A stretch of 60,035 nt of DNA, from assembly GCA_000998135.1 (NCBI GenBank), contig LCCV01000009.1, positions 1 through 60,035 on the forward strand. The letters run 5' to 3'. A program made the position numbers and the translations under genes. Under the pieces are notes generated by a model that worked only from the letters and a program-made list of their open reading frames with translations, had not been told where the DNA came from and did no database searches. This DNA comes from Parcubacteria group bacterium GW2011_GWA2_42_14 (lineage in GTDB: Bacteria; Patescibacteriota; Minisyncoccia; Sungbacterales; GWA2-42-14). Below, in pieces: positions 2,433-50,652 of the stretch. Each line of letters begins with the position of its first letter. Within the stretch, counting starts at the first letter, position 1.

Positions 2433-2482
2433 GGCCGCGGAAATTCCGCGAAAATCCGCGTTATGTCCGCGTAGGTCAGCGT
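2433..2482 (+). repeat. direct array of CCGCG words (period 10-11 nt) in the 23S leader
   Basis: ccgcggaaatt ccgcgaaaat ccgcgttatgt ccgcgtaggt cagcg. Confidence 0.7.
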
Positions 2483-3087: not shown

Positions 3088-3203
3088 AAAAATGCTTCGC
3101 ATTTTTTTCGCAGAATAAGCAGACAGTACGCTGAATTACGCAGAATTTTTCTGCGTATTTCTGCGTTTCTTCTGCGAATTTCTGCGAAGGGAATGCGCAG
3201 CGC
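3088..3203 (+). other. 23S IVS-2: ORF-less periodic-word hairpin (CGCAG / CTGCG words)
   Basis: Inserted between ggaggaaaataaa and attcccttagtagcggcgagcg. The arms are cgcagaa... and ttctgcg repeated every 10-11 nt around acgcagaatttttctgcgt. Confidence 0.75.
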
Positions 3204-3998: not shown

Positions 3999-4406
3999 GT
4001 AGAATTCAAAAGACCCGAAACCTCGTGAGCTTACCATGAGCAGGTTGAACCCCTGAGAAATCAGGGGGGAGGACCGAACCGGTTGGTCGTGCAACGCCTT
4101 CGGATGACTTGTGGTAAGGAGTGAAAAGCTAATCGAACGAGGAAATAGCTGGTTCTCTCCGAAATAGTTTTTGGACTAGCCTCGGATCACGCTCCGCGGT
4201 ACATGAGGGGAAGAGCCCAGACCATAAACTAAGGTCCCCAAATCTATGTTAAGTGGCAAAGGTGGTGGAAATTCTCAAACAGCAAGGAGGTTGGCTTAGA
4301 AGCAGCCATCCTTTAAAGAGTGCGTAACAGCTCACTTGTCAAGAGTTTCTGCGCCTAAAATTTAACGGGGCTAAACATAGTACCGAAGTTATGGGTGTCG
4401 TGCCTC

Positions 4407-4517
4407 ACTCGTGTGAGGCACGCGCGGACGGTCGCGGACTGGACGCGGAAGGTCGCAGAATTTTTCTGCGTAATTCCGCGTTAGTTCTGCGCGTTCAGCG
4501 CGTGACTCGCAGTAGCG
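4407..4517 (+). other. 23S IVS-4 in helix 45 (classical IVS site): ORF-less periodic-word hairpin
   Basis: Inserted in the hairpin gtgtcgtgcctc...gaggcacgacgc that follows ggggctaaacatagtaccgaag. The arms are built of gcgg/gcag and ctgcg/ccgcg words. Confidence 0.75.
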
Positions 4518-5072
4518 AGGCACGACGCGGTAGGAGAGCATTTCAAACGCAGTGAAGGTTGACCCGCGAGGGCAACTGGAGTGTTTGGAAGAGAGAATGT
4601 TGGCACAAGTAACCACAAGACAGGTGAAAACCCTGTCCGCCGAAAACCCAAGGTTTCCTTGGCAATGCCAATCATCCAAGGTTTAGTCGGCCCTAAGGCC
4701 ATGGCGAAAGCCGTAACCGATGGACAGCTGGTTAATATTCCAGCACTGTTTTACGCATCGATGGCGTGACGGAGCAAAGTATATTAAGCATATTATTGGA
4801 TTTATGTTCGTGTCTTAAGGATTGAGCGTAGGCAAATCCGCGCTCGGGGGTTATGCCCGAATCCAAATGAAGCGAAAATCATGCGGGGCAACCCAATTGA
4901 AATTTAATAAAGCTTGCTTCCCAGAAAAACGTCTAAGATTATGCGTAAAGCAACCGTACCGGAAACCGACACAGGTGGGTTGGTCGAGTAGACTAAGGCG
5001 AACGAGTGAGTCTTCGTTAAGGAACTAGGCAAAAAAGCAGCCGTAAGTTCGCAATATGGCTTGCCCGGCACC

Positions 5073-5601: not shown

Positions 5602-6352
5602 GAATTATGTTGCCTTAGTAAAATCTGGCTATATCGGTGAACACCTCATTATGCGAGACACATAGTGAGACAATACCGAGGGAAGTCGCCTGCTCAAATT
5701 TTTAAACTTTTATTTAAATTATTAAAAGAAAAACCCACACGGATTAAATCATGTGTGGGTGCAATCTATGAGGTTTGGGCTTAAACGAGCTTAAACTTTG
5801 TGCCTAAGTACCAGAATAGCCTTATCTCCTTTTTTTGACCTTGGAAGACCGTGAAGTCCAAATGGAGCCGTATCAAACTGGTCAACATAAAGCGGACTAT
5901 CATAAGAGCTTGGAATAAGGTCGCTCATTAACCGCAATGCTGTTACTTCCCTATCTGTGCGAGCAAACATTACGATTTTCAAAGATGGTTTGTTGACTCG
6001 AATTCGATATGACAGCCTCATGCCAATCCTCCTTTTAGGATAGTTGTGTTATGCTAACAATAGCATATTGAAAAAGAATTGTCAAGAGTTTAAAAATTTG
6101 AGCGGGTTGACCCCGTAGAGACTACACGCTGGATCGAGCACCTTTCATGTTCGGAATTTGTATGCGGTTTGCAAACATTACAGATGTTAAGTAACTGCAT
6201 CAAAAAATTTCAATGTGAGAAAGGTGCTCGAAAGATATAGTCCGAACTCCATGGCGACATGGAGAGCTAAGCAGAAATGACTTAGCCAGTAACATTCCGC
6301 GACTGTCCGCGTTAAGTCCGCGTATGTCTGCGGTTGTTATAGTAACAACATG
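5602..6352 (+). mobile_element. group I intron A at E. coli-equivalent site about 1931
   Basis: Exon joins as ctaaggt|agcgcaattcc (E. coli CUAAGGU|AGCGAAAUUCC). The 5' exon ends in U and the intron ends in G. It has the core element aagatatagtccgaac and shared blocks atatcggtg, ataccgagggaagt and accccgtagagact. Confidence 0.8.
5791..6021 (-). CDS. 76-aa protein of unknown function, antisense, inside a loop of intron A
   Basis: AGGAGG (6028-6033) is 6 nt from the ATG. TTGACA (6080-6085), 17 nt, TATTGT (6057-6062) form a promoter. The terminator is cccacac/gtgtggg plus T-run (5727-5760). The cassette is closed by the stem gctcaaatttttaaac / gtttaaaaatttgagc. Confidence 0.55.
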   Translation of the reverse strand: MRLSYRIRVNKPSLKIVMFARTDREVTALRLMSDLIPSSYDSPLYVDQFDTAPFGLHGLPRSKKGDKAILVLRHKV

Positions 6353-6733: not shown

Positions 6734-6940
6734 GCGGTGAAACCTGATTGAGACAGTGTCTGGTGGGCAGTTTGTTTGGGGCGAAATTCTCCTAAAAAGT
6801 AACGGAGAAGTCCAAAGGTCAGCTTAAGACGGATGGAAACCGTCTGTGACGTGTAAAGGCAAAAGCTGGCTTAACTCCGAGGCGGACATGCCGAGGAGAT
6901 ACGAAAGTATGGCTTAGTGAACCGATGGCCATGTCTTGTT

Positions 6941-7058
6941 TTCGACAAGACCGCAGAATAACGCAGACAGCACGCGGAAGGTCGCAGAATTTTTTCTGCG
7001 TAATTCTGCGTCAGTTCTGCGAGTGTCTGCGATCTTGCGGAAGCAAGATACTTACTAG
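6941..7058 (+). other. 23S IVS-7: ORF-less periodic-word hairpin
   Basis: Inserted in the hairpin cttgtt...aacaag between gtgaaccgatggcc and ggccaaagattaacggataaaag. Its core of about 50 nt (6972-7021) is nearly identical to 4443-4491. Confidence 0.75.
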
Positions 7059-7074
7059 AACAAGGCCAAAGATT

Positions 7075-7111
<37 letters not shown>

Positions 7112-7150: not shown

Positions 7151-7749
7151 TGAACATATCGGGGTGCTATGCCAGTAATGGCATACCTGGGAATATTTGG
7201 AGAATATTCCAAAATAAAAATCTCGCTAATATCGGTGAAGTTCTATTGAATTTTGAACCAATTTTGATAGGATAATACCGAGGGAAGTTATTTTTTCTCT
7301 TATAGGTCGAATAGTTATTATTTACTTAACCAAGTTTACTTTTATGGGAATAGAGTCATGGCCAAAGCCGTTTCAAGAACGGCCGGCAGATTTTATAGAA
7401 ATAGAAGAGGAAGAAAGGCGACGGGAGAAAGAAAGAATAAAAAGAGAAAAAGAATTACAAAAAGAAAAAGAAAAGCCCAACCCTCTTCTTAATAAAGAAA
7501 GAGTAAAAGAAGAACTGGAGAAACTGGAGAAAGAAGAAAAAAAATAACCCCGTAGAGACTTTAATCTGATTCATTCAGATTAGGATATTTTGCTTTTAGC
7601 AAAATATAATACGCGAGCCCCTAATTCCGTTGTAAGCGGAACGGGTGAAGATATAGTCCATGCCTCTAGTAATAGAGGAAGTTTCGTAATTTCTGCGTGA
7701 TTCCGCGTTAATTCCGCGTGAGTCCGCGGTTTTGCGAAGCAAAACATAC
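7151..7749 (+). mobile_element. group I intron B at about site 2500 (boundaries +/-3 nt)
   Basis: Splits ggcacct | cgatgtcggctc (E. coli GGCACCU|CGAUGUCGG). It shares atatcggtgaag, gataataccgagggaagtt, aaccccgtagagact and ggtgaagatatagtcc with introns A and C. I could not place a canonical terminal G. Confidence 0.65.
7344..7547 (+). CDS. 67-aa Glu/Lys-rich ORF in a loop of intron B (sense)
   Basis: ORF fills the segment between ccgagggaagt and accccgtagagact. It has no clear SD, and the low-complexity EEEERRREKERIKREKELQKEKEK may be non-coding. Confidence 0.3.
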   Translation: MGIESWPKPFQERPADFIEIEEEERRREKERIKREKELQKEKEKPNPLLNKERVKEELEKLEKEEKK

Positions 7750-8529: not shown

Positions 8530-8589
8530 AGGTCCCAAGCGTTCGGCTGTTCGCCGATTAAAAAGTTACGCGAGCTGGGTTCAAACCGT

Positions 8590-9290
8590 CAATAAAAAGA
8601 ACCCAAATATTGACATCGAAATCTTTTAACAAGCTTATGATAGGAGTTTGTTGAAAAAACACGGCGGCTTATACGAGTAATCGTGTTCGAAAAAACCGAC
8701 TCATATCGGTGGATTCCTATTCGTCCCTTTATGTGGGATGCGCAGACAGTCGCGGACATAACGCAGACAGTCGCGGAAATTGAAATCCCAACCTGGATTT
8801 GATAGGATAATACCGAGGGAAGTTAGGTCGAATTTATTTAAATCTTAATATTTCTAAAAAATCATGGAACAAAAATATGAAGGGCAATCAGAGAAAGCAC
8901 CACAAATAATGTTAGATGTTGCGAATTTGATTTCACGATTAAGCGGAGAGATTGAAAAAGGAAACCTCACTCAAACTGTAAAAGAAAGTTTGAAACGTAT
9001 GTTAGAAGCCGGAATTAAAGATTTATCTGAATAATACTTAACCCCGTAGAGACTTGTTCGGCAATATCATGTCGGACAGACCAAGCGCACAAAATTTTAT
9101 GTGCTCGGTAACACGTCGGTCTCCATCCGCATGCATGCGGAAGGATGATGGTATAGTCCAATCCCTCTGGTAACAGAGGATATGCATAGCATCGCGGACA
9201 GTCGCAGACTGGACGCAGAACAGCGCAGAATTTTCTGCGTAATTCTGCGTAAAGTCAGCGCGATTCTGCGGTTTTGCAATGCAAAACAAG
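8590..9290 (+). mobile_element. group I intron C at E. coli-equivalent site 2593
   Basis: Exon joins as caaaccgt|cgtgagacag (E. coli GAACGU|CGUGAGACAG). The 5' exon ends in U and the intron ends in G. It is a close paralog of intron B (catatcggtgg, gataataccgagggaagttaggtcgaat, aaccccgtagagact, gatggtatagtcc). Confidence 0.8.
8864..9034 (+). CDS. 56-aa ORF in a loop of intron C (sense; below ORF-track cutoff)
   Basis: MEQKYEGQSEKAPQIMLDVANLISRLSGEIEKGNLTQTVKESLKRMLEAGIKDLSE. It sits in the same loop position as the intron B ORF and has no clear SD. Confidence 0.3.
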   Translation: MEQKYEGQSEKAPQIMLDVANLISRLSGEIEKGNLTQTVKESLKRMLEAGIKDLSE

Positions 9291-9416
9291 CGTGAGACAG
9301 GTTGGTCTCCTATCTACTGCAGGCGCAAGATACTTGAGGGAAGTCGTCCTTTGTACGAGAGGATCAGGATGAACGAACCTCTGGTCTATCGGCTGTCACG
9401 CCCGTGGCACTGCCGA

Positions 9417-9467
<51 letters not shown>

Positions 9468-9498
9468 CTCCCAAGATTAGGTATCTCGCCCTCCCAAC

Positions 9499-9791
9499 TT
9501 TTTGGATTTTAAATTGGATTTTAAAGTTTCAATTATGTGGTATGTATATATTATCCAAAGCAAGAAAGATGATGATTTCTATGTTGGTTTAACCAATGAT
9601 TTACGTCGAAGGTTAAAACAACACAATGAAAGCAAGGTTCCTGCCACAAAATTTCGTACCCCGTTTGAGCTTGCATATTACGAAGCTCATCACAATAAAT
9701 ATGATGCCGCCCGGAGAGAACAATTTTTGAAAAGCGGCTGGGGTAAAAATTGGATAAAAAGAACACTGTTAAAGTATCTAGAATCCAAAAA
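9499..9791 (+). other. 23S IVS-8 (helix-tip insertion, domain VI) carrying a GIY-YIG ORF
   Basis: Arms ccctcccaactttttggatt (9489-9508) and aatccaaaaagttgggaggg (9782-9801) lie downstream of gctgaaagcatctaagcgggaag. No group I core motifs were seen. Confidence 0.75.
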
Positions 9792-9804
9792 GTTGGGAGG
9801 GTAA
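9535..9804 (+). CDS. GIY-YIG nuclease family protein
   Basis: WYVYIIQSKKDDDFYVGLTNDLRRRLKQHN matches the GIY...YIG / RR..H motif set. The last 7 codons and the stop are encoded by the 3' stem arm. Confidence 0.8.
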   Translation: MWYVYIIQSKKDDDFYVGLTNDLRRRLKQHNESKVPATKFRTPFELAYYEAHHNKYDAARREQFLKSGWGKNWIKRTLLKYLESKKLGG

Positions 9805-11966: not shown

Positions 11967-13121
11967 TTAAAGCAGTGTTTCTATCGACGTATATTCAAGG
12001 CCGAAAGTTTTGGCAAGGCCCGCTGAAGTTATCCTACCGTTATAAATTGATACCGCGCCTCTTAAGGCAGGGTTTTCTTTTAGTGCCCCGATGAACCCGA
12101 GTTTGATAATCTGCATCATGTAGGGAAAAACCGATTCGGAAAAAACCGGGGTGGAACGTTCGGAGACTCCGCCCGGAAAATTGGGAATGCCGATATATTT
12201 TATTCCTCGTTCAAGTTCTATTGCCGGATTTTCATGGGTAGTAACCCGTGAAAATTCACATGCTCCGCCTTGGTCAATAGAGGTATCCACTATTACCGAA
12301 TTATCCGGAATACTATTGCGCATTTCGTTTGTTATAATAATCGGGGCTTTATTTTCGGGAGCATACGGAGCAAGGTTTATTAGAAGCGGCTTATGATATT
12401 CTTCCGTTTCCATAAGTCTTTTAAGAAGTTGGGGAATTTCTTCCGGTGGACAGGTTAAAAATCCAAAAGGGGCCGGTGAGTCTTCATCTTTACGGCATAT
12501 TTCCGCATAATTTTTTATCTTTCTCATATCCGGATCTATGGCGGTAACGGATAGCCAAAAGCTTTTTTCGCTAAGCCAATGCGCGGCTTGCCCAACTGTT
12601 CCGTAACCAACAATAATCAATTCCGGTTTTGGGCCTGAAAAATATTTCATTCCGATTCTAATCCCTTCCTCGCCGGCGATTTTGCTCATTCCTGCCAGCA
12701 CCCGCCGCGAGCCGTCCGATTCTACAATATCTTCCAGCGAAAGATATGTGCCATTGCGTTCAATTACCAATTCCGTGAGTTCGCGATTGGAAGCCAGATG
12801 TCCAAAACTGATTATGGGTAAACATGGCTGTATAAAATAATATTCTTCAGGAAGCAATTCCTTTACCTTAAGCACGGCAAGTTGTCCGAAGCCGTGTTTA
12901 TCCGGCCGCATCAGCCGCCAAAATTCTTCTTTATCTTTTGGACGCGAAATAATTCGCGTCCCTCTCGCCCTATAAAATTCGTCAAAAAATCCGCTTTTTT
13001 CTCCGGCGCCTTTTTCCATATAAACTGCGGCCCCGGCATAGACAGCATCGTAAACATGATTGGGACACATAGGAAAACGACCCTCTCCGCACTTAATCTC
13101 TTTCGGCATAAAAATAACCAT
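11967..13121 (-). CDS. alanine dehydrogenase/PNT family NAD-binding enzyme
   Basis: PKEIKCGEGR...EKGAGEKSGFFDEFY, VLKVKELLPEEY, SFGHLASNRELTE and the Rossmann motif IIVGYGTVGQAA match the AlaDH family layout. The likely start is the ATG at 13109. Confidence 0.65.
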   Translation of the reverse strand: MVIFMPKEIKCGEGRFPMCPNHVYDAVYAGAAVYMEKGAGEKSGFFDEFYRARGTRIISRPKDKEEFWRLMRPDKHGFGQLAVLKVKELLPEEYYFIQPCLPIISFGHLASNRELTELVIERNGTYLSLEDIVESDGSRRVLAGMSKIAGEEGIRIGMKYFSGPKPELIIVGYGTVGQAAHWLSEKSFWLSVTAIDPDMRKIKNYAEICRKDEDSPAPFGFLTCPPEEIPQLLKRLMETEEYHKPLLINLAPYAPENKAPIIITNEMRNSIPDNSVIVDTSIDQGGACEFSRVTTHENPAIELERGIKYIGIPNFPGGVSERSTPVFSESVFPYMMQIIKLGFIGALKENPALRGAVSIYNGRITSAGLAKTFGLEYTSIETLL

Positions 13122-13250: not shown

Positions 13251-13335
13251 GGGTCATCCGTATCAGCGTTGTTTTAACGCGCTTTTCAGCGATTAATCAG
13301 CGGGGAACACCGCTTAAATAAAGCTGATTGAAACG
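13251..13335. repeat. periodic-word hairpin (CAGCG / CGCTG words)
   Basis: tatcagcgttg...tcagcgattaatcagcgggg aacaccgcttaaataaagctgattg. Confidence 0.6.
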
Positions 13336-15388: not shown

Positions 15389-15399
15389 TAGGATTAACT

Positions 15400-15455
15400 G
15401 AAACATGGAACATGGAACATAAACCATGATTCATGATTTATGATTCATGATTTAT
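15400..15455. repeat. periodic-word hairpin (CATGG / CATGA words) overlapping the rpiB start
   Basis: aacatggaacatggaacataaaccatgattcatgatttatgattcatgatttat. Confidence 0.65.
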
Positions 15456-15890
15456 CTTGCATCCGACCACGTCGGTTTTGAACTTAAAGAAAAACTGAAG
15501 ACATATCTTCAGGAACTTGGATACGGAGTGAAGGATTTTGGGGCTTTTAAATTTGATGCGGAAGATGATTATCCGGATTTTATTCGCAAAGCGGCCGAAG
15601 CCGTTGCTAATGACCCGGAGCAGGGTCAAGGGATTATTCTTGGCGGTTCTGGTCATGGGGAAGCCATGGTTGCCAATCGTTTTAAGAGAGTGAGGGCCGC
15701 GGTATACTATGGCGGTGATGAAAAAATAATTACTTTGTCGCGTGAGCATAATAACGCAAATGTGTTATCGCTTGGAGCGAGGTTTTTAACGGAAGAAGAA
15801 GCAAAAAAAGCGGTAAAATTATGGCTGGAAACGAAGTTTAATAATGAAGAAAGACATGTGAGGAGAATTCGTAAAATCGATGAATTATGA
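15447..15890 (+). CDS. rpiB: ribose-5-phosphate isomerase B
   Basis: LASDHVGFELKE...ILGGSGHGEAMVANR...NANVLSLGARF is the RpiB/LacAB family signature. Confidence 0.85.
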   Translation: MIYLASDHVGFELKEKLKTYLQELGYGVKDFGAFKFDAEDDYPDFIRKAAEAVANDPEQGQGIILGGSGHGEAMVANRFKRVRAAVYYGGDEKIITLSREHNNANVLSLGARFLTEEEAKKAVKLWLETKFNNEERHVRRIRKIDEL

Positions 15891-15950
15891 ATTAGGGACG
15901 GAAAAAAACTAAAAATTTTCCATAATTCCTAATTCCTAATTCCTAATTTA
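15882..15950. repeat. periodic-word hairpin (AATTAGG / CCTAATT words)
   Basis: gaattatgaattagggacgg ... cataattcctaattcctaattcctaattt. Confidence 0.6.
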
Positions 15951-18515: not shown

Positions 18516-20429
18516 ATGGATGAATTAATAAAAAAAATAGAAGAAATTGAAAAGCGATTAAGCGCCATTGAAAGCTGGGTTGGTTTTTGGATATCGCAAG
18601 AATCTCAAACCGTACCTCCGCCGCCTCCCATAGCCGTCCCATCGTCAGTACCAACAAAGCCGCCCACTCCACCTTCGTATGTCCTTGAAGATTTATCCGG
18701 ACGAGAATCCTTGCAAGAAACGCCCAAAACCACGATGTGGGTATCTGAAACGGGGCCAAGAAATCTCGAGTCATACATCGGCAGATGGTGGCTTGGAATC
18801 GTTGGTCTTGTGGCAATTATCTTTGGCATGAGTTTTTTCATTAAATATGCTTTTGATAATAACTGGATAGGGGAAACAGGCAGGATTATGCTTGGAATCG
18901 CAATGGGGCTTGTTTTTGTGGTTGCCGGAGAAATATTACGCCCAAGGATTGCTAAATATTCGTACATTTTAAGCGGCGGGGGGCTTGCTTTATTCTATCT
19001 TTCTATTTATGCGGCATTCTCTTTTTATCATCTTATTGGACAGCCGACCGCCTTTCTCTTTATGGGCTTGATAACGGCATTCGGTGTAACGCTTTCTTTA
19101 TTTGCCAATGCCGTTGAATTATCAGCGCTTGCCGTATCAGGAGGATTTTTAACTCCATACCTTCTTTCTACGGGAACCGTGAATGATGCCGGCTTCTTTT
19201 CATATATTGCTATTCTCAATATCGGCATTCTAGCTGTTGCGTTTTTCAAGAAGTGGCGCCAGCTGACGATTTTAGGATTTACCGGTACGGTGCTTAATTT
19301 CGCGTCCTGGTACGGTGTTTATTATAATTCCGAAAAACTGTTTTTTGCGATTTCTGTTCTTTCTGCTTTTTACATAATTTATACTTTGGCCGGAGTAATT
19401 GCCAATTTTGTCACCAAGAAATTAAGCGATACCGGCGATCTTTTTGTGCTTACCATAAATCCGGTGTGGTTTTTTGGCTGGGTTTATTATCTTTTAAAGC
19501 CGCAATATGAAAATTCCTTGGGGTTTGTGGCTGCGGGTCTTGCCGCGCTTTACATTCTCTTTGCCTACATTTCGTCTTTCTTAAATCCCGATGATAAGCG
19601 TTTAACGCTTTTTCTCGGCGCCATTGCTCTTGTTTTTCTAACCATTGCGATTCCTTTACAACTTGACCAAAATGCCGTCACGATCGCCTGGGCCATGGAA
19701 GCCGCTGTTCTTTTCAGCCTGGGCGCGATATTAAAAAATGCCAATATGCGTATGTTTGCCTTAAGTGTTTTCCTCATTGCCATGTTTCGGTTGTTTGCAT
19801 TTGATAGCGAACGAGGGAATCTTGCGGAATTCACTCCTATTTTTAATAAGCGTTTTTTTACCTACTTCATGGTAATATTTTCTTCAGCCGTAATGGCTTA
19901 TGTCTCATCCATTAATGCTTTTGAATTTACCTGGCGCGAGAAAGGGGTAAGGGCGTTTATCGGAACCGCCTTAAATATTTTGATACTCATTGCCATATCT
20001 CTCGAAATTTATGCTTTTTTTGATGCGCGTATTTTTGAGCTTAATAGAAAATCTCTTCAATCAAGCCAATACGGCAATAACAGTGGACAGGTCCTTAATG
20101 ATTATGGCACCGTTTATCGATTGCCCGATTCGCAAGAATATCGTTCTCTGGCCAATAAGCGGAATGCCTCAATTTCAGTTTTTTGGACGCTATATGCAGT
20201 ATTGTTAATAGGACTCGGCATAGTCTATAAAAACGGTTTTTTGCGCTGGTTAGCCCTTATCCTTTTTGGCGTTACTGTTGCCAAGGTGTTTATCTTTGAC
20301 CTCTCTTTTCTTGCCACTCCCCAGCGGATTATATCCTTTATGGTTCTAGGTGTAATTCTTTTGATTGCGTCATACCTTTATTTTCGGTTTCAGAAGCAAC
20401 TGGAAGGAACTTTATCTAATAAACCTTGA
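18516..20429 (+). CDS. large polytopic membrane protein (DUF2339-like)
   Basis: N-terminal coiled segment MDELIKKIEEIEKRLSAIESW, a Pro-rich linker, then about 16 TM helices. The assignment rests on architecture and the DUF3999-like neighbour, recalled from memory. Confidence 0.45.
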   Translation: MDELIKKIEEIEKRLSAIESWVGFWISQESQTVPPPPPIAVPSSVPTKPPTPPSYVLEDLSGRESLQETPKTTMWVSETGPRNLESYIGRWWLGIVGLVAIIFGMSFFIKYAFDNNWIGETGRIMLGIAMGLVFVVAGEILRPRIAKYSYILSGGGLALFYLSIYAAFSFYHLIGQPTAFLFMGLITAFGVTLSLFANAVELSALAVSGGFLTPYLLSTGTVNDAGFFSYIAILNIGILAVAFFKKWRQLTILGFTGTVLNFASWYGVYYNSEKLFFAISVLSAFYIIYTLAGVIANFVTKKLSDTGDLFVLTINPVWFFGWVYYLLKPQYENSLGFVAAGLAALYILFAYISSFLNPDDKRLTLFLGAIALVFLTIAIPLQLDQNAVTIAWAMEAAVLFSLGAILKNANMRMFALSVFLIAMFRLFAFDSERGNLAEFTPIFNKRFFTYFMVIFSSAVMAYVSSINAFEFTWREKGVRAFIGTALNILILIAISLEIYAFFDARIFELNRKSLQSSQYGNNSGQVLNDYGTVYRLPDSQEYRSLANKRNASISVFWTLYAVLLIGLGIVYKNGFLRWLALILFGVTVAKVFIFDLSFLATPQRIISFMVLGVILLIASYLYFRFQKQLEGTLSNKP

Positions 20430-20549
20430 GTTACGAAATACAATAATCCGCGTGATATCAGCGTATTAATCAGCGTAAAATTAGCGTAAACGCTGATAGA
20501 ACGCTGAACGGTACGCTGAAGAAAACGCTGATAATCTTAATTTCGTAAT
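20430..20549. repeat. periodic-word hairpin (CAGCGT x3 / ACGCTG x4, period 11-12 nt)
   Basis: cagcgt occurs at 20459, 20471 and 20482, and acgctg at 20490, 20501, 20513 and 20525. The outer arms are ttacgaaat / atttcgtaa. Confidence 0.8.
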
Positions 20550-21856
20550 TGAAGGTAATAAAACGTAAAATAACGATGAAATACTTTTATTTTATTATTA
20601 GCATATTGATATGGATAGGACTGACCTTGACGGTTCATGCTGATTTTAATTCTCCGGCATGGGAATGGCGGAGCAGAGTTATCGGCGGTTCTTTTTTGGG
20701 CTCCGATTTTGTTCTGCTTGACTTACCTTCTGATTTTTTCTCCTATTTAAAATCAGATCTTTCGGATCTGCGGGTGGCTAATCAGGATGGAGAAGTTCCT
20801 TATGTTATTGCCCAAGAAAAGGAATCGGAAACTTTTACGGGTGTTCCGGCACGAATGTTTAACCTTTCCTACGCGCCGGGAGATGCCACTTCCCTTGAGG
20901 TGGACTTAGGCCAATCAGGAGTATTTCATAACTCTATTAATATTGAAACAACGTCCGAGAATTTTCGCAGGATTGTGGAAATTCAGGGGTCAAACGACCA
21001 GGCATCATGGCGGACGCTTAATCCCCGTGGGCAAATTTTTGATTATACGGTCCGCGATATAAAACCTGTATCCGTGCGGGATACAAATGTTGCCTATCCG
21101 GATGCAACGTTTCGCTATCTTTTGGTTAAAGTTTTTGATCAGGGGGAAGAGCCGCTTAAGGTTCGCGGCGTTAAAGTTTTTCGCAAAGTATCAATGCCCT
21201 CCCGGGAACTTTTCTACAGTCCGTTGCTTGAAATCGTGGAGAATAAAGACGAGCATACGACCAACGTTATTTTGGATATAGGAGCGCGCGGCATCCCGCA
21301 TCGCCGGGGCCGTATTACGACTTCAAGCGTAAATTTTAATCGCGCGGTCGCAATTTTTGACAGCGACAATAAAACTGATTGGCGGCTTTTATCCAATGCT
21401 TACCTATTCGTCATTGATACGCCAAAATTCAGAGGAAGCAGTTTGGATTTCAGTTACCCCGAATCAAATCGCCGATATCTGCGCCTTTCTATATATAACC
21501 GTGACGATAAACCAATCAATATTAGCGAGGCAGGCTTATATGGAATTGTTAGGAGAATTCTTTTTAAGTTTGATTCAGTAAAAGATTATTATGTTTATCT
21601 CGGCAATTCCGAAGCGCGCCGTCCTCAATATGATATCGAAGCAATCTCTCAATATGTTGACGCCGTCGGACTAAATCGCGTAAGCGCCGAACCGGTGGAA
21701 AAGAATGGAGATTATGTTGTTGCTGTTGCCCCTAGGCCGCCCCTAACAGAACGCTCTCCGTATATATTGCCGGTAATACTGGGTATTGTTGTGGCAATTT
21801 TGGCTTTTTTGCTTTTAAAAACATTGGTGGGTAAAATTAAGAGTGAACATCAGTAA
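20549..21856 (+). CDS. secreted/anchored beta-rich protein (DUF3999-like) with C-terminal TM helix
   Basis: N-terminal signal-like helix, discoidin-like repeats and a C-terminal TM helix. Ends in the tail TLVGKIKSEHQ, identical to the transketolase-N tail. Confidence 0.45.
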   Translation: MKVIKRKITMKYFYFIISILIWIGLTLTVHADFNSPAWEWRSRVIGGSFLGSDFVLLDLPSDFFSYLKSDLSDLRVANQDGEVPYVIAQEKESETFTGVPARMFNLSYAPGDATSLEVDLGQSGVFHNSINIETTSENFRRIVEIQGSNDQASWRTLNPRGQIFDYTVRDIKPVSVRDTNVAYPDATFRYLLVKVFDQGEEPLKVRGVKVFRKVSMPSRELFYSPLLEIVENKDEHTTNVILDIGARGIPHRRGRITTSSVNFNRAVAIFDSDNKTDWRLLSNAYLFVIDTPKFRGSSLDFSYPESNRRYLRLSIYNRDDKPINISEAGLYGIVRRILFKFDSVKDYYVYLGNSEARRPQYDIEAISQYVDAVGLNRVSAEPVEKNGDYVVAVAPRPPLTERSPYILPVILGIVVAILAFLLLKTLVGKIKSEHQ

Positions 21857-21932
21857 TAAATCTATCTCGAATCAATCTCTAATTTTTTCGCGAATATTCG
21901 CGAATTAATTCGCGATTGATAAGCGATGAAAC

Positions 21933-24123: not shown

Positions 24124-25155
24124 ATGCAATTTGACGTCATTACAATCGGCACCGCAACCAGAGATGCTTTTGTCAAAAGCAAAGATTTTCATGTTGATAA
24201 AGACCGGCATGTTTTGGGTGGCAGGGGATTGGTAATGCCCTTGGGAGCGAAGCTTGAAATAGAAAAAATAGAATTTTCAAGCGGAGGCGGAGCAACCAAT
24301 ACCGCCGTTACTTTTGCCAAACAAGGTTTAAAAACCGCGGCTCTTTGCGTCGTTGGAAATGATGTTTTGGGCGAGGCGATAATCCAGGAATTAAAGCGCG
24401 AAAAGGTTGATGCCGATTTTGTCGTCAAGAGAAAAGAACTGCCGACCGCCTATTCAATTCTATTGCACCCGGAAGGCGGGGAAAGAACGGTTTTGGTTTA
24501 TCGGGGGGCATCGGAAAGCTTGTCCCTAAAAGATATTCCCTGGCAGAAACTTAAAACAAAATGGTTTTATATTTCTTCTCTTGCCGGAAATATCGGCCTT
24601 TTGAAAAATTTGGTTGATTTTGCAAAAAAGAAAAAAATAAAAATTGCTTATAACCCCGGCGGAAAAGAACTAAAACAAAGAAAAAAGCTTTTGCCGATTC
24701 TTAAATATATTGACGTTTTAACCGTTGACCGGCAAGAGGCTGCCCTGATTACGGGCGTTTCTTATAAAAATGAAAAAGAAATTTTTCAAAAATGGGACAA
24801 AATGTCGCCGGGTATAAACGTGATAACGGACGCGAGAAACGGATTATGGGTTTCCGACGGAAAATATCTATACAAGACAGGAATTTATAAAGAAAAGGCG
24901 ATAATTGACAGAACCGGAGCAGGAGACGCGTTCGCCTCAGGATTTGTCGCGGGCGTTATTCGCCAACTGACAACCAACAACCAACAACTTTTAACACTCA
25001 CTACGAAAAATATCAAATACGCGATAAAACTTGGAAGCGCTAATGCTACTTCAAAGGTTGAGGGAATTGGAGCGAAGTACGGATTGCTTACTAAAAAACA
25101 GTTTGAGACGCAGAAAAGGTGGAAGAAGCTTTTTATCAAAGTTGATAAAATCTAG
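24124..25155 (+). CDS. PfkB family carbohydrate kinase
   Basis: GGGATNTAV and DRTGAGDAFASGFVAG motifs. It contains a CAACCAACAACCAACAAC word insert at 24971-24988 (QLTTNNQQ). Confidence 0.8.
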   Translation: MQFDVITIGTATRDAFVKSKDFHVDKDRHVLGGRGLVMPLGAKLEIEKIEFSSGGGATNTAVTFAKQGLKTAALCVVGNDVLGEAIIQELKREKVDADFVVKRKELPTAYSILLHPEGGERTVLVYRGASESLSLKDIPWQKLKTKWFYISSLAGNIGLLKNLVDFAKKKKIKIAYNPGGKELKQRKKLLPILKYIDVLTVDRQEAALITGVSYKNEKEIFQKWDKMSPGINVITDARNGLWVSDGKYLYKTGIYKEKAIIDRTGAGDAFASGFVAGVIRQLTTNNQQLLTLTTKNIKYAIKLGSANATSKVEGIGAKYGLLTKKQFETQKRWKKLFIKVDKI

Positions 25156-25208
25156 CGACAAGCGACATGAGACAAGGGGCATGTCTCATGTTACATGTCA
25201 CATGTTAC
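25155..25208. repeat. periodic-word hairpin (GACA(T)G / CATGT words) overlapping the next start codon
   Basis: gcgacaagcgacatgagacaaggggcatgtctcatgttacatgtcacatgttac. Confidence 0.65.
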
Positions 25209-26496
25209 TTCGTTGGAACCATACGAAAAAATAGCCAAAATTTTAAGAACCGATAAAGACGTGGTAAAAAGCGTAGAAGATTTCATGTCCTTTTTTGTGG
25301 GGCACAATTCCACCATTGAGCGCATTTACGAAGAAAACGAAAGGGTTATTTCCCAGAAAATGGGGCTTTTAGAAATCTCTCAAAAATCGGCCAAGAACAT
25401 TTATGACGCCTTAATCAAAAAAATAGAAACCGATGATAAGCGCTTAAACTCTTTTATCCATCAGGAAAACATAGGCAACATGGAAGGTTTTTACAATCTC
25501 ATTACCTTATCCAACAATCTGGCCAATGTCGGCTCAGGGTTTTTTCTGAAAGAAGAAGTAGCCAAAAAACTAATCCGCCATGATCCGCCTTCCCGCATTA
25601 TGAATTTTTTAGGTTACATCAATGTCGACGAAATGCTTAAGAAGGAAAACGTACTTGAACTCTTTTCGGCCCTTCGTTTTATTGAAGGAAACGAGTGGCT
25701 GAATAACGTCTTTTTTAAGCAATATGCTGATTTAAAACCGGATGATTTTGAAGAGCGTCCCATACGGGCCATACTTCTTGATAAAAAATGGTCCCAACCG
25801 GCCGAGGAATTCATCAAGAAAAAATTCCATAACGTAAGCCACCTGAAAGAACTCGGCATAATATTCATCATTCCGACATTTATGGGAATTTCGGGAGAAA
25901 CCATGAGAACTCTGACTTTGGTTCTGCATTATTTTCATGAAATCAAATTTTATTCCATGCTCTTCAAAAAATATGCCGGCGGGGCTAAGGATGAATTTTC
26001 AAAAAAAATCGTATCATCTTTAAGAGGCGATGTTCTGGACAAAAGATTCCCCGAAGATGATTTAGGCAAAAAATGGCTTATAGTCCAAAGATATCTTGCC
26101 AAAGACGATGAATTTGACTGGAGATTATTTTATCCCCATGTCAATCCTGAAGCGATTCATTGGTCCAAAGCTGAAGATGATATTGCCCGCCTCGGGGAAA
26201 AATATGGGGAACTCGGGTTTTCTTTCTGGGAAAACTTAAACCATATCGGCGATTTTTTTCCGGATGAGGCCGGTGTGGATATTCTCGTGAGTTTTAACCT
26301 GATTGATGTTGCTATGTCTTTGGTGCAAAAAAAACAGCTTATTAAATATCTTTATCACCATCAGGAAGCCATGTGGAATAAGATTTTCTCGGAATTCATG
26401 GGGCATGAACGGATGGAGCAGATGATAATTGATAATTTTGATAAAGGATACATAAATTTGGAAAATCCAAATTTCAAAATCCCAAATTCCAAATAA
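25195..26496 (+). CDS. conserved-looking hypothetical protein (433 aa)
   Basis: Long ORF with ordinary composition and no recognisable motif. The first codons (MSHVTS) and last codons (NPNFKIPNSK) are encoded by word-repeat hairpins. Confidence 0.5.
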   Translation: MSHVTSLEPYEKIAKILRTDKDVVKSVEDFMSFFVGHNSTIERIYEENERVISQKMGLLEISQKSAKNIYDALIKKIETDDKRLNSFIHQENIGNMEGFYNLITLSNNLANVGSGFFLKEEVAKKLIRHDPPSRIMNFLGYINVDEMLKKENVLELFSALRFIEGNEWLNNVFFKQYADLKPDDFEERPIRAILLDKKWSQPAEEFIKKKFHNVSHLKELGIIFIIPTFMGISGETMRTLTLVLHYFHEIKFYSMLFKKYAGGAKDEFSKKIVSSLRGDVLDKRFPEDDLGKKWLIVQRYLAKDDEFDWRLFYPHVNPEAIHWSKAEDDIARLGEKYGELGFSFWENLNHIGDFFPDEAGVDILVSFNLIDVAMSLVQKKQLIKYLYHHQEAMWNKIFSEFMGHERMEQMIIDNFDKGYINLENPNFKIPNSK

Positions 26497-26585
26497 TGCC
26501 AAAATCCAAATATCAAAAATTAAAAAAATTTGAATTTTGAGTTTTGAATTTATTTGGGATTTGAAGATTGGAATTTGGAATTTTT
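26463..26585. repeat. periodic-word hairpin (CCAAA(T) / ATTTGG words)
   Basis: aaatccaaatttcaaaatcccaaattccaaataatgccaaaatccaaat ... tttgaattttgagttttgaatttatttgggatttgaagattggaatttggaattt. Confidence 0.8.
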
Positions 26586-26592
26586 ATGTAAT

Positions 26593-27783: not shown

Positions 27784-27797
27784 GGTAATTAAAGAGT

Positions 27798-27930
27798 AAA
27801 ATCTAAAATCCCAATACCAAAATCCCAAACAAATTTAAATTTTAAAATTCAAAATTTCTACCCTAAGTAAATTTTAATGATTTGGATTTTGATATTATTT
27901 GGGATTTGGGATTTTAAAATTTGGATTTAA
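27798..27930. repeat. periodic-word hairpin (CCCAA/CCAAA / TTGGG/TTTGG words)
   Basis: aaaatctaaaatcccaataccaaaatcccaaac ... gatttggattttgatattatttgggatttgggattttaaaatttggattt. Confidence 0.8.
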
Positions 27931-27938
27931 CATCATCT

Positions 27939-28814
27939 ATGACCCTACAACAATATCACGAAAAAGCGTTAAAAGAGGGCTGGGCCATCGGCCATTTTAA
28001 TGTTTCTAATTTAGAACAAATCCGGGCAATAGTTGAAGCCGCGGCCACTTTAAAATGCCCTGTTTTAATCGGAACTTCCGAAGGAGAAAGAAAATATATC
28101 GGGCCAAGACAAGCAGCGGTTGTTGTTAAATCACTTCGCCAAGAAACCGGACTTCCGGTATTTATCAACGCCGACCATTCCAAAAGCGTTGAGTCCGCCA
28201 AAGCGGCGGTTGACGCGGGATATGATTCCATTCATATTGATCTTTCCGCTTTACCGTATGAAGAAAATTTAAAAGGCACCAAAGAAGTTGTAGAATATGC
28301 TAAATCCAAAGTTTATAGCGACATCGGGGAAATCCACGTGGAAGGGGAATTGGGCCTGCTTTTGGGAGAATCAAAAATACAAAAAGAGGTAATAGAAGTA
28401 AATCCTGAACAATTTACCAAGCCGGAAGAAGCCCATGAGTTTGTTGAAAAAACCGGCATTGACCGCCTGGCTCCGGCTGTGGGAAATATCCATGGAATTC
28501 CGGCCAATGTAAAAACTATTGACATAGAATTGATTAAAACCATAAGAAAACACATGGCTTCAAAAACTGGATTAACTCTTCATGGCGCTTCGGGCATTTC
28601 CGACGACCAAATTATTGGCGCGATAAAAGCCGGGGTAAACAACATTCATATAAATACGGAAATCCGCGTTGCCTATGTAAACGCCCTTAAAAAATCGCTT
28701 GAGGAAAATCCTGAAGAAACAACGCCGTATAAGCTATATTCTTCGGTAATTGCCGCCGTAAGGCATAAGGTGGAGGAAAAATTGAGATTATTTGGGTCAA
28801 TTAATAGAGTTTAG
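27939..28814 (+). CDS. fba: class II fructose-bisphosphate aldolase
   Basis: GWAIGHFNVSNLEQ, INADHS, VEGELG and GNIHG motifs. The start is set at the first ATG after the repeat hairpin. Confidence 0.85.
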   Translation: MTLQQYHEKALKEGWAIGHFNVSNLEQIRAIVEAAATLKCPVLIGTSEGERKYIGPRQAAVVVKSLRQETGLPVFINADHSKSVESAKAAVDAGYDSIHIDLSALPYEENLKGTKEVVEYAKSKVYSDIGEIHVEGELGLLLGESKIQKEVIEVNPEQFTKPEEAHEFVEKTGIDRLAPAVGNIHGIPANVKTIDIELIKTIRKHMASKTGLTLHGASGISDDQIIGAIKAGVNNIHINTEIRVAYVNALKKSLEENPEETTPYKLYSSVIAAVRHKVEEKLRLFGSINRV

Positions 28815-28903
28815 AAGCAGAACAACGCTGATTGAGTACGCTGAACCACGCTGAAAAATTCAGCGTAAAATCAGCGTACTTACCAGCGTCAAATCAGCTT
28901 CTA
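28814..28903. repeat. periodic-word hairpin (ACGCTGA x3 / TCAGCGT x3)
   Basis: tagaagcagaacaacgctgattgagtacgctgaaccacgctgaaaaattcagcgtaaaatcagcgtacttaccagcgtcaaatcagcttcta. Confidence 0.8.
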
Positions 28904-30688: not shown

Positions 30689-30779
30689 TGTCATTGCGGG
30701 CGAACGAGTGAGCGAAGCAATCTCGTATTTATGCAACTTTTTTAGATTGCCTCGGTCGCTTCGCTTCCTCGCAATGACA
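30689..30779. repeat. palindromic element of the GTCATT..GAGCGAAGC..AATCT family
   Basis: tgtcattgcgggcgaacgagtgagcgaagcaatct ... agattgcctcggtcgcttcgcttcctcgcaatgaca. Confidence 0.75.
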
Positions 30780-30826
30780 TTGTTAAACAGTCGGAATAAT
30801 CAATTAAAAAATTCCAATTTTAAATT

Positions 30827-34911: not shown

Positions 34912-34919
34912 AATAAATA

Positions 34920-35004
34920 GCGACTCCAATATACGAATAACACACGAATGACTCTAATAACTAATTCGAGTCATTCGAATGCAAATTCGAGTCATTAGAG
35001 TCGC
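34920..35004. repeat. periodic-word hairpin (ACGAAT/GACTC vs ATTCGA/GAGTC), sibling of 44783-44865
   Basis: gcgactccaatatacgaataacacacgaatgactctaataac taattcgagtcattcgaatgcaaattcgagtcattagagtcgc. Confidence 0.8.
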
Positions 35005-35006
35005 TA

Positions 35007-36177: not shown

Positions 36178-36236
36178 TTTATGTAACATGAAACTTGAAT
36201 CATGAATCATGTTTCAAGTTATAAGTTTCAGGTTTT

Positions 36237-36821: not shown

Positions 36822-36825
36822 TAAC

Positions 36826-37005
36826 CGACAACTAATAATTAATAACCGTAGACTGTCCAAAAACTGCAAAAATCAGTTTGTCGTCATTCTGAGCGAAGCG
36901 AAGAATCTAATGTTTAAGTTAATTTCGAAACGCAGAGATTCTTCACAAGGTTCAGAATGACAGTTTTCGAACGGTCTAAGGTTGTAGGTTGTAAGTTGTA
37001 AGTTG
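36826..37005. repeat. nested palindromes: outer CAAC/GTTG word arms around a GTCATTCTGAGCGAAGCGAAGAATCT-family element
   Basis: Outer arms are aaccgacaactaataattaataaccgtagac ... ggtctaaggttgtaggttgtaagttgtaagttg. The inner element is tcgtcattctgagcgaagcgaagaatct ... agattcttcacaaggttcagaatgaca. Confidence 0.75.
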
Positions 37006-43239: not shown

Positions 43240-43320
43240 AACCAACAACCAATAACTAACAACCAACAACAAAAAGAGTTGTAAGTTGTAAGTTGTAAGT
43301 TGTAAATTCAGTTGTTGATT
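43240..43320. repeat. periodic-word hairpin (CAACAA/CCAA vs TTGTAAG words)
   Basis: accaacaaccaataactaacaaccaacaac aaaaagag ttgtaagttgtaagttgtaagttgtaaattcagttgttg. Confidence 0.75.
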
Positions 43321-44782: not shown

Positions 44783-44865
44783 GCGACTTCAATACTCGAA
44801 TTCACTCGAATGTCTCGAATTAAATTATTAGAGTTATTCGAGTGTCATTTGCATATTAGAGTCGC
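44783..44865. repeat. periodic-word hairpin (CTCGAAT / ATTCGAG words), sibling of 34920-35004
   Basis: gcgacttcaatactcgaattcactcgaatgtctcgaatt aaattattagagttattcgagtgtcatttgcatattagagtcgc. Confidence 0.75.
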
Positions 44866-49330: not shown

Positions 49331-49440
49331 AAAATGGAAAAGGGCCATTTGGCAACAGTCCCAATGTATCAATCATTTTGAAATTCTTTCAATTACGAAA
49401 CTATCAATATCAGCGTATTTTCGGCGTACTTTATCGGCGT

Positions 49441-49512
49441 TTTATCAGCTTCTATGGAAAATAGAAGCAGATTTGACGCTGATTAGTACGCTGATACCTC
49501 GCTGAAACTGTA
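49441..49512. repeat. word hairpin plus ACGCTGA array overlapping the GH15 gene 3' end
   Basis: atcagcttcta tggaaaa tagaagcagat ttg acgctgattagtacgctgatacctcgctga. The last 7 codons of the minus-strand gene (FSEVSAY) are encoded by the array. Confidence 0.7.
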
Positions 49513-50652
49513 TTTCGTAGCAATGAGTGCTAAAGCGTGCGCCCAAGCAAGCGGAGTGTTATTATTCTGTTTCCCGTTTTGATAAAGTTCCGGAATTTTG
49601 CTGTCTTTAATGTCCCCGCATCCTTCTTTAAACCAAAATACCGCTTTTTCATGGGAAACCTGGTCATGGAACTGGGAATAAATGATGGAAAGCCAGAATT
49701 TGAACATGGGCCACTCCGCGGAAATCCCCCTGTATTTTCCTTCGGTGGAACGGAAATAATCATCTCCCCAATAACGGTTGAATCCGTGAATTTGAAGAAG
49801 TTTATGATTATCCCCATTTGTTTTATGGCCGTTTACAATCCTTGAAATAATCTCGTCAATTTTTTCCGGTTTTACAGTCACATGATACGGCCAGATTAAT
49901 GAAAGCTGGGCGGAATCGCAATCATGGCTGTGATGAGATTTAAGACATTGTTCGCGCGATTCAAAAGGAAGAATTTCGTTAAGGACCTTATCTCCCAACT
50001 GGATAAGAGGGTCACGAATATCAACCAGTTTTTGTTTCTTTACGTATTTAAGTCCGGCCACCACCGCGCCAATTGAGGAACTATGCTGTATTTCGCATTC
50101 CTCCCACATGCCATAATCGGGATTTAGCCAGTATTCAACGCTCCTAAGATAGGCAACCAAAAGTTCAAGAATTTCCAAATCTTCCTCGTCCCTGATGATA
50201 CGCATATTTTTAAAATCGGCATCCGCCACAATATGCAGAAATAATCCCAAAGCATCCAATTGATGATGTCCCCACTTATCATCGGCAGTTATTTCTTCAA
50301 GGGTATTGGAGTTGAATTTTGCATGAATCAGACCGCCGGGAACATAAATTGGAGAAGCGATGCGAACCTTTATTTTTTTCTTATGTTTTTTGAACAGGTC
50401 AAAAACAATCCAGATGCCCTGCTTTAATTTTTCAAAGTCACCAAGATACCAATAAGCGTAGGTGGCATAAAGCGTATCGCGTATCCATAACGAGGAATAA
50501 TTTTCGGAGGGGGAGGCAATAAAGGCGCCATTGGGACGCCTAAGCGCTTCCATATTCTGAAGTATGGTTTGTTTATTGAACATTTCGCCCTTTTTCAGTT
50601 TTGACAAAGAACGGTATATAATATATCTATAATAAAAGTCGCTAAATTGCAA
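49483..50652 (-). CDS. glycoside hydrolase family 15 (glucoamylase-like)
   Basis: LWIRDTLY, WGHHQLDALG and DYGMWEE match GH15 catalytic-domain motifs. Confidence 0.7.
   Translation of the reverse strand: MQFSDFYYRYIIYRSLSKLKKGEMFNKQTILQNMEALRRPNGAFIASPSENYSSLWIRDTLYATYAYWYLGDFEKLKQGIWIVFDLFKKHKKKIKVRIASPIYVPGGLIHAKFNSNTLEEITADDKWGHHQLDALGLFLHIVADADFKNMRIIRDEEDLEILELLVAYLRSVEYWLNPDYGMWEECEIQHSSSIGAVVAGLKYVKKQKLVDIRDPLIQLGDKVLNEILPFESREQCLKSHHSHDCDSAQLSLIWPYHVTVKPEKIDEIISRIVNGHKTNGDNHKLLQIHGFNRYWGDDYFRSTEGKYRGISAEWPMFKFWLSIIYSQFHDQVSHEKAVFWFKEGCGDIKDSKIPELYQNGKQNNNTPLAWAHALALIATKYSFSEVSAY

Follow-up and report, generated by a model that had tools for sequence, protein, structure and literature searches.

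What are the imperfect palindromes that lie between so many genes of one Parcubacteria genome, and how did they come to be there? A previous reading of 60,035 nucleotides from Parcubacteria group bacterium GW2011_GWA2_42_14 (contig LCCV01000009.1; this whole stretch is called the window hereafter) suggested that most gene boundaries bear a hairpin whose left arm repeats a short word and whose right arm repeats the reverse complement of that word, with a different word at each locus. The window comes from a Rifle groundwater metagenome contig, and all element coordinates are positions in it. Its genes are housekeeping genes, mostly on the plus strand (rpiB, rpe, a split transketolase, ftsW, fba, mraZ, rsmH, PBP2, a murE-like gene, prfA, rpsB and tsf), and their nearest named homologues, at 54-56% amino-acid identity, belong to Candidatus Ryan-, Sung- and Giovannonibacteria. 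We show herein that the word-array hairpins are real and that they fall into at least six multi-copy families, whose copies in the window and sister species range in number from 2 to about 12. The explanation that we favour, as slightly better than an even bet, is that they are small, non-autonomous dispersed foldback repeats specific to one genus-level clade of Parcubacteria, selfish or neutral, whose arms arise by internal doubling and whose units are copied to new non-coding sites.

The focal palindrome and word recurrence in the window

The element at which the question was posed lies in the gap between a DUF2339 and a DUF3999 gene. It belongs to class A, whose word (W) is TCNGCGT; the reverse-complement word is written r or rcW.

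20423..20556, no strand assigned: focal class A element, arm order W then rcW

Four words face four in this element. The left array (20447-20487) reads TCCGCGT, TCAGCGT, TCAGCGT and TTAGCGT, the right array (20490-20531) consists of four exact copies of ACGCTGA at spacings of 11, 12 and 12 nucleotides, and an outer stem of 17 nucleotides, ACCTTGAGTTACGAAAT (20423-20439) paired with ATTTCGTAATTGAAGGT (20540-20556), surrounds both. Folded as RNA, the element reaches a minimum free energy of -53.6 kcal/mol (z -8.76), which none of 200 shuffles equalled; folded as DNA, its z score against shuffles is -6.30. The left arm is made of two 23-nucleotide double units, 82% identical to each other, which suggests growth by doubling and would explain why four-unit arms are so frequent. 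The hairpin is no assembly artefact, because the same intergenic sequence is present in all of the independent ENA, NCBI (GCA_001820775.1), JGI and Logan assemblies, the genes of which are likewise identical to those of the window. A pattern scan of metagenomes turned up only four loci, and apart from a duplicate just one of these was of use.

An energy scan with RNALfold was too unspecific, returning 202 hairpins, mostly in coding sequence, and a detector was therefore used that looks for a chain of words followed by a chain of the reverse-complement word, with block dinucleotide shuffles as controls. It found 12 word-array hairpins in the window against 0.6 in the shuffles, and 10 against 0.015 when at least five units were required; direct chains of at least three units numbered 37 against 6 expected. 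The original prediction hinged on an excess of word recurrence at lags around 9-13 nucleotides, above all at 10-12. Such an excess is present, and it is larger still at lag 7: for 6-mers, z is 16.7 at lag 7 and 6-8 at lags 9-12. At lag 7, 5-mers recur 21.3 times per kb in intergenic DNA against 2.8 per kb in coding DNA, and at lags 10-12 the corresponding values are about 6 and about 2. The lag-7 excess is concentrated in intergenic DNA, while that at lags 10-12 is found in intergenic DNA and in the rRNA operon. A long open reading frame (ORF) for an fn3-like surface protein (55250-60035, continuing past the end of the window) probably accounts for part of a strong k-mer recurrence at lag 21.

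The predicted period of 10-12 nucleotides thus describes only part of the elements. It fits class A (10-12 bp; 11-12 in the focal element), whereas about half of the loci listed in the prediction repeat every 7 nucleotides (15400, 15882, 25155, 26463, 27798, the outer arms at 36826, 43240 and 43746). With 7 nucleotides dominant, and with spacings of 7/11/8 or 7/10/8 inside single elements, one word per helical turn is not a general rule. The frequency was also overstated: by inspection, about 16 of 35 intergenic gaps (about 45%), rather than most, carry an element.

Families of word arrays and their turnover between species

Within each family the architecture is fixed. Typical arms consist of an array of a 5-7-nucleotide word, mostly in four units and often in two doublets, facing a mirror array of its complement. 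The elements measure 55-180 bp, and some families have an additional outer stem. The intergenic elements, besides the focal one, are as follows; none has an assigned strand.

49393..49520: class A, with the arm order and the TTACGAAA outer stem of the focal element; 4+4 units
28812..28903: class A with the arms the other way round, ACGCTGA leading; 4+4 units
13259..13335: decayed class A element in a divergent intergenic gap
21863..21928: element on the word TTCGCGAA, which is self-complementary and occurs three times at spacings of 11 and 12
15395..15460: hairpin of 7-nucleotide period, AACATGG x2.7 facing CATGATT x4
15882..15950: hairpin of 7-nucleotide period, GAATTAG facing TTCCTAA x4.3
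25153..25215: GACATG/CATGTC element of 7-nucleotide period, overlapping the upstream stop codon
43746..43811: element of 7-nucleotide period, GACATGA x4 facing CATGTYR x4, between mraZ and rsmH
26459..26586: AAATCC(C)/GGGATTT element, period 7-8
27794..27934: second AAATCCC/GGGATTT element
36822..37005: composite element, outer CAACTAA/GTTGTAA arms of 7-nucleotide period around an unrelated GTCATTCTGAGCGAAGCGAAGAATCT hairpin
43240..43305: hairpin of AACCAAC x4.4 facing AGTTGTA x4.1, upstream of mraZ
34918..35006: class C element, GCGACTC...CGAAT facing ATTCG...GAGTCGC, between rpmE and prfA (minus strand)
44783..44865: second class C element, after rsmH, 85% identical to the first
36187..36235: probable small hairpin of 7-nucleotide period, CATGAAT facing TCAAGTT

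Class A is the largest family, with about 12 copies, 7 or 8 of them inside the 23S gene. A logo of 98 units gives its word as TC-N-GCG(T), with the central base free. Both arm orders occur: four CGCNGA units precede four TCNGCG units at 4423, 6952 and 9193, with a degenerate copy of this pattern at 3129, and W comes first at 20447 and 49410. A run of TCCGCGT at 48018-48056, reported by TRF and not among the loci of the prediction, was rejected as a coding look-alike of the class A array; its four TCCGCGT-like words lie in a Mur ligase gene and encode an FRV-type peptide repeat that is conserved in sister species. Among the families on other words, the elements at 26459 and 27794 are paralogous (92% over 49 nucleotides), and the right arm of the composite element at 36822 is 96% identical to 43278-43302; overall, the aligned segments of paralogues in the window share 84-96% identity. 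The 7-nucleotide families of the window have about four units per arm, and the CACAGAT family of a sister contig (L010) has 5+5.

Stems are nearly invariant within families, and the spacers between words follow a rule of their own: between the arms they agree in length without being complementary. In the rRNA copies of class A, their lengths are mirrored between the arms (4, 5, 4 facing 4, 5, 4 nucleotides), while their sequences are not complementary between the arms and are nonetheless kept among five rRNA paralogues. It follows that the fold is a rod of 7-bp helices with symmetric internal loops between them. Two families from the sister loci are laid out similarly: TACGAAT as 7/11/8 facing 8/11/7, with four copies equal in length and variable spacers of 4-5 nucleotides, and TACGAAA as 7/10/8 facing 8/10/7.

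Several elements run into coding sequence. With its end, TAGAAGCAG, the 28812 element overlaps the aldolase stop codon, and the left arm of the 26459 element makes up the last ~14 codons (26454-26496) of an upstream ORF of 433 amino acids. In the annotated rsmH gene, the first ~16 codons are the right arm of the 43746 element (43765-43812); this arm is non-coding, as RsmH homologues begin about 16 amino acids after the annotated ATG. Many heptamers hold a stop triplet, so that three tandem units place stops in all three reading frames, and many words hold palindromic sites that resemble restriction or methylation motifs (CATG, TCGCGA, TCGA, GANTC, GAATTC). A further hairpin family on GTCATTCTGAGCGAAGCGAAGAATCT and its complement is present at 30690-30790, 36864-36988 and 49250-49340, with one copy nested in a word-array element.

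The window was compared with sister-species contigs that are syntenic and about 80% identical to it in nucleotide sequence (L007, L010, L011 and L093-L095), with a more distant relative (L096) and, at the 23S rRNA gene, with another relative (L098). The sister contigs are equally rich in hairpins, with largely different words. In at least four gaps the family differs between species while the flanking genes are still syntenic. For example, the mraZ-rsmH gap holds GACATG in the window and CACAGAT in L010, and the gap after rsmH holds class C in the window, TACGAAT in L010 and a class A variant (ACGCAA) in L093. Likewise, ACGCTGA of the window is replaced by TTCGCGA between fba and the 2-hydroxyacid dehydrogenase gene of L011, and CATGG (15395) by TACGAAT between ftsW and rpiB of L007. 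The prediction had asked whether sister genomes keep the architecture while the words drift; it is often a different family that occupies the same gap. Nor are the words locus-specific, as had been assumed, since families recur within the window and in sister species. The TTCGCGA family, for instance, is found at 21863-21928 and in a non-orthologous gap of L011 (5222-5293), the two copies being ~85% identical over their span and 93-95% across two arm segments. It was correct, however, that the elements are not copies of one sequence.

Three sites that are filled in the window are cleanly empty in relatives: the focal gap, which is 11 nucleotides long in L007, and the 23S sites 3094-3201 and 6910-7068 in L098. 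In the window TAATAAA stands on both flanks of the focal insertion, and L096 carries a truncated left end of the focal family. At another 23S helix, L098 has an 89%-identical copy of the 6910 module, in the form of a 125-nucleotide module. These comparisons establish that the families are dispersed and insertion-polymorphic. The original argument against transposing sequences, which rested on a constant architecture with variable words, does not survive the dispersed families, the filled and empty sites and the turnover of families at orthologous gaps. Among close strains the elements are stable: six contigs of the species that share ~99.9% overall identity carry the focal element unchanged, and three elements do not differ among four contigs of a sister species (97.5-99.9% identical overall); no variation in unit number was seen in either set.

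Hairpins of at least five units occur at 0.17 per kb in the window and 0.2 per kb in the sister loci, compared with 0.01 per kb in 80 loci (1.31 Mb) of other genomes that share the DUF2339 gene. Isolated look-alikes are found in other Parcubacteria and in Acidobacteria. The architecture is therefore not unique to the clade; its density and diversity are. Literature searches found no published description of such repeats in Parcubacteria or other bacteria of the candidate phyla radiation (CPR).

The turnover also bears on the suggestion that the arrays bind a protein (nucleoid, partition or regulatory) on double-stranded DNA, with a single site in each helical turn. The 10-12 bp spacing of class A, its conserved TC-N-GCG(T) core with a free central base, which resembles a protein site, and a 4+4 layout that would suit an oligomer speak for such a model. 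However, the commonest period is 7 nucleotides, eight or more unrelated words are in use, copies lie inside rRNA and introns, and positions differ between sister species, unlike the conserved GTGG boxes of mraZ. These boxes, an AAGTGG/GTGG array upstream of mraZ (window 43130-43235; L010 4900-5010), are conserved in sister species and look like the MraZ operator, a true conserved word array unlike the hairpins. Conserved operator-like arrays are ruled out for the hairpins, and protein binding to DNA in any form is a very improbable account of them.

Word arrays in the 23S rRNA gene

The largest set of class A copies lies in the 23S rRNA gene, which an alignment to E. coli rrlB places at 2525 to ~9600, about 7 kb. 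An Rfam match covers 2525-7324 only, and must be partial because E. coli positions 2534-2787 map to 8530-9485 of the window. The gene has more than 10 insertions, including a 1.4-kb LAGLIDADG intron, 700 nucleotides at position 2593/2594 and 752 nucleotides at 1931. They occupy classical intervening sequence (IVS) regions (E. coli ~130-178, 533-668 and 1157-1186) and also the intron sites 1931, ~2500 and 2593; the three large insertions whose folds were computed (~130-178, 533-668 and 1704-1770) are each closed by a long terminal stem. A LAGLIDADG homing-endonuclease ORF (7837-8382) lies within the 23S intron, and a GIY-YIG ORF (9502-9804) at or just past the 3' end of the gene. The word arrays in and near the gene, all on the plus strand, are:

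3094..3201, +: class A hairpin in 23S, E. coli positions ~223-233
4389..4533, +: class A hairpin, pattern rrrrWWWW, in 23S at E. coli ~1157-1186, helix 45 region
6910..7068, +: module of three hairpins whose core is class A 4+4, placed in the loop of a 23S helix, E. coli ~2400-2414
9191..9272, +: 4+4 hairpin of class A, close to the 3' end of the 700-nucleotide insertion (23S 2593/2594)
7692..7728, +: half array in the 23S intron, four TCNGCG words, upstream of the LAGLIDADG ORF
8741..8777, +: half array, four CGCNGA words, downstream of the same ORF
2436..2481, +: array of TCCGCG in direct repeat (rWWWW), 23S leader
6296..6332, +: four TCNGCG words as a direct array, within the 23S insertion at 1931

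At 23S helix tips, the helix 45 region included, class A hairpins are present. Five rRNA copies align throughout, spacers included, and the two half arrays are likely partners that bracket the LAGLIDADG ORF. The 23S genes of Salmonella, Campylobacter, Leptospira and Rhizobiales carry IVSs, stem-loops of about 100-150 nucleotides at helix tips, among them the helix 45 region. The copies described here resemble them in being stem-loops at helix tips (~223-233, 1157-1186 and 2400-2414) and in being sporadic among relatives, two of them being absent in L098. To our knowledge, the known IVSs have not been reported as word arrays or with paralogues in ordinary intergenic gaps. By analogy, the copies in the 23S precursor may be tolerated, or may be putatively excised, probably by RNase III.

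The rRNA copies, that at 3094 among them, are 7-16 kcal/mol more stable on the sense strand, and contain 22 G·U pairs in the sense against 7 in the antisense direction. Such a bias fits selection that acts on the folded RNA, as in intervening sequences. Could all of the elements then be RNA elements that the host keeps at gene ends for their action on the transcript, be it as sites between cistrons where RNase III or another enzyme processes the RNA, as blocks to 3' exonucleases or as insulators of translation, the identity of the family being secondary? They do occupy the gap from a stop codon to the next start, the mirror-matched spacer lengths maintain the geometry of a rod, G·U pairs overall number 80 sense against 49 antisense, and the share of gaps that are filled in the window is paralleled by many filled gaps in sister species, though with a different family. 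Outside rRNA, however, only a weak G·U bias is left (58 against 42), which positive GC skew confounds, and over all elements the folding energy shows no significant difference between sense and antisense (Wilcoxon p = 0.18). Moreover, several orthologous gaps are simply empty in sister species, elements also lie in a divergent gap and in introns, and canonical terminators exist separately. We consider host selection an improbable origin for the elements as a whole.

Origin of the elements and related repeats

Dispersed, non-autonomous foldback families remain the explanation that we favour. Copies have been gained or lost at non-coding sites, namely gaps at stop codons, apical loops of 23S helices and rRNA introns. 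The arms would be built by internal tandem doubling of a word with its spacer, and whole elements would then be copied to new sites. There, an inserted element would be co-transcribed and would fold into a rod of short helices with symmetric internal loops, so that elements may later be constrained to fold harmlessly, or even usefully, in transcripts and rRNA precursors.

A number of observations weigh against this explanation. No transposase, HUH or RAYT (REP-associated tyrosine transposase) gene was found in the 60-kb window, and none is among the Pfam families listed for the called genes of L007, L010, L011 and L093-L096 (about 60 kb; L098 left out). If every family requires its own enzyme, eight or more is a large number in a genome of about 1 Mb. 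No near-identical copies were seen, so there is no sign of current activity. A fixed target-site duplication was likewise not found: TAATAAA is present at one site, TA is possible at three and several have none. Finally, three of the four right-arm words in L098 carry the same T-to-A change without a compensating change in the left arm, which suggests homogenisation within the arm or selection on the word and is not explained by simple copying and decay.

The last observation would fit an alternative in which the elements grow in place. Local slippage would multiply stem segments, and templated correction from arm to arm (quasipalindrome template switching) would preserve their symmetry; the architecture would be a mutational by-product, perhaps of weak mismatch repair, and words would arise locally. 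Besides the concerted change in one arm of L098, this alternative would account for perfect tandem heptamer arms (AGTTGTA x4) opposite a degenerate partner, for the doubled structure of the focal left arm and for similar hairpins scattered across unrelated phyla. Two papers (PMC4679880, PMC4692102), citing Mrazek 2007, also report that heptamers are the most frequent among the long simple repeats of prokaryotes. On the contrary, growth in place does not predict that one family, with equal outer stems and spacer lengths, should appear at several loci and in several species, that empty sites should be clean, without a precursor hairpin, or that unit number should be invariant among strains. Templated correction, moreover, would erase the non-complementary spacers that are conserved among paralogues. 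Growth in place is therefore doubtful as the source of the families.

In another alternative, which we think quite unlikely, one structure-directed process, instead of family-specific enzymes, makes and spreads all families. A candidate would be an activity on hairpin apices or ends that builds arrays by repeated doubling or self-nesting and acts alike between genes, at the tips of rRNA helices and in the loops of introns; a rule of recognition or templating would then lie behind the free central base and the within-arm change of L098. Self-nesting in its simplest form, in which a minimal W-loop-rcW hairpin re-enters its own apex, found no support: spacer pairs are unlike loop halves, and single-unit hairpins are uncommon.

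How do the elements compare with known repeats? Like MITEs, the miniature transposable elements with inverted repeats, they are palindromes over their whole length with multiple dispersed copies; classical MITEs were set aside since target duplications are inconsistent. Both clean rRNA empty sites lack a target duplication. The want of a consistent duplication is better matched by a hairpin-targeted route, or one like that of repetitive extragenic palindromes (REPs) and REPINs (REP doublets forming hairpins), than by a cut-and-paste MITE. A separate hairpin with termini CCCCGTTAGAA...TTCTAACGGGG (window 52861-52975; L008 11948-12063; L010 7060-7180) is common to several Parcubacteria genera and looks like a more conventional MITE family. 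REPs and REPINs, which are mobilised by RAYTs, resemble the present elements as small dispersed intergenic palindromes that form long hairpins, without target duplication and with several families per genome (PMC3116915, PMC2817692, PMC3733652). Ends of the type CTAC...GTAG, as in GTAG-tagged REPs, are found at L010 2516 and 13254 and at window 49393. Nonetheless, the elements are not canonical REPINs: each REPIN arm holds one REP, an imperfect palindrome of 20-35 nucleotides with a GTAG or CGTC head, whereas each arm here is an array of 5-7-nucleotide words, and most families lack the GTAG tag, GTAG-like ends being confined to TACGAA-type families.

Other classes could be set aside more directly. 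The original prediction was right that the elements are not CRISPR, since their units measure 7-12 nucleotides, at 3-8 per arm and with the arms inverted, rather than 24-48-nucleotide direct repeats with unique spacers of comparable length. It was right, too, that they are not simple terminators: the first 10 nucleotides after each element contain 1-5 T and no T-run, while canonical terminators stand elsewhere in the window (24070, 33830, 43020, 50860 and 55090). A pair of terminator-like hairpins, AAAAACCAAGNATTAATGCTTGGTTTTTGAAT, almost the same in sequence, is found at 50855-50890 and, 4 kb away, at 55085-55120; L010 has a copy at ~12209-12283. Phase-variable simple sequence repeats do not fit, as unit number does not vary between close strains, nor do integron attC sites: the flanks are syntenic housekeeping genes (rpiB, rpe, tkt, ftsW, mraZ, rsmH and PBP2), and no RYYYAAC/GTTRRRY pair was found at the elements. 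At the gathering threshold, Rfam matched rRNA and tRNA in the window and no element.

Foldback (FB) transposons of Drosophila and other eukaryotes have inverted terminal repeats of tandem subrepeats with a conserved core and little internal sequence or none. They are, however, eukaryotic, of kilobase scale and sometimes accompanied by coding partners, and homology is not implied (for context, PMC3169594). The closest published counterpart is found in Xanthomonas campestris and X. axonopodis, which carry inverted arrays of the heptamer GGGAATC (Rehm et al. 2015; PMC4692102). These arrays have mostly four units, and about three quarters form convergent inverted pairs capable of a stem-loop, 70-75 pairs per genome; about 90% are intergenic, ~28 nucleotides from the upstream ORF, and they are dispersed, at different genes in related species (PMC4692102). 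The present elements, too, are intergenic inverted pairs of about four units near the 3' ends of ORFs, at positions that are not conserved between species. The Xanthomonas arrays, however, use one G-rich word and were studied as G-quadruplex formers (PMC4692102), whereas here at least eight unrelated words, periods of 7 and 10-12 nucleotides, both arm orders, outer stems and copies in 23S rRNA and introns are found, and a GGG or GGGG tract occurs only in the GGGATTT family. The TAACTGA sets of Beggiatoaceae are direct repeats, with one inverted case among 170 (PMC4679880). They share with the present elements, as do the cyanobacterial short tandemly repeated repetitive (STRR) heptamers, the form of intergenic heptamer arrays. 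Very small dispersed mobile repeats associated with hairpins were reportedly described by Elhai et al. in 2008.

Some other features of these contigs are recorded here. After tRNA-Glu and tRNA-Tyr come sequences that duplicate part of a tRNA 3' end, CGAATTCCGGTGGGAGCA and similar (50740-50870 and 37690-37990). In L010 (11990-12260), tRNA-Glu (12094-12165) seemingly lies within a second, split tRNA-like sequence, which could be a tRNA intron or an integration scar. An ORF on the minus strand (39016-40521) fuses a LexA DNA-binding domain and an S24 peptidase to an N6/N4 DNA methyltransferase domain.

Genomes of CPR bacteria (Patescibacteria) are usually called streamlined and repeat-poor; here, one architectural class of repeats occupies nearly half of the intergenic gaps and likewise many of the insertions in the 23S rRNA gene. 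Its practical consequences are visible in ORF calls lengthened into the arms (rsmH and the 433-amino-acid ORF) and in an Rfam match that covers only part of the 23S gene, and the elements may confuse the assembly and annotation of CPR genomes. The class also extends the inverted-heptamer phenomenon of Xanthomonas to many words and a second period, which argues that architecture, not G-quadruplex potential, is the common denominator. By linking intergenic hairpins to rRNA intervening sequences, the origin of which is an old question, it suggests a shared pool of mobile foldback elements. If a single structure-directed process did make and spread all of the families, the clade would offer a natural model of hairpin-propagating selfish DNA, which would then form a new class.

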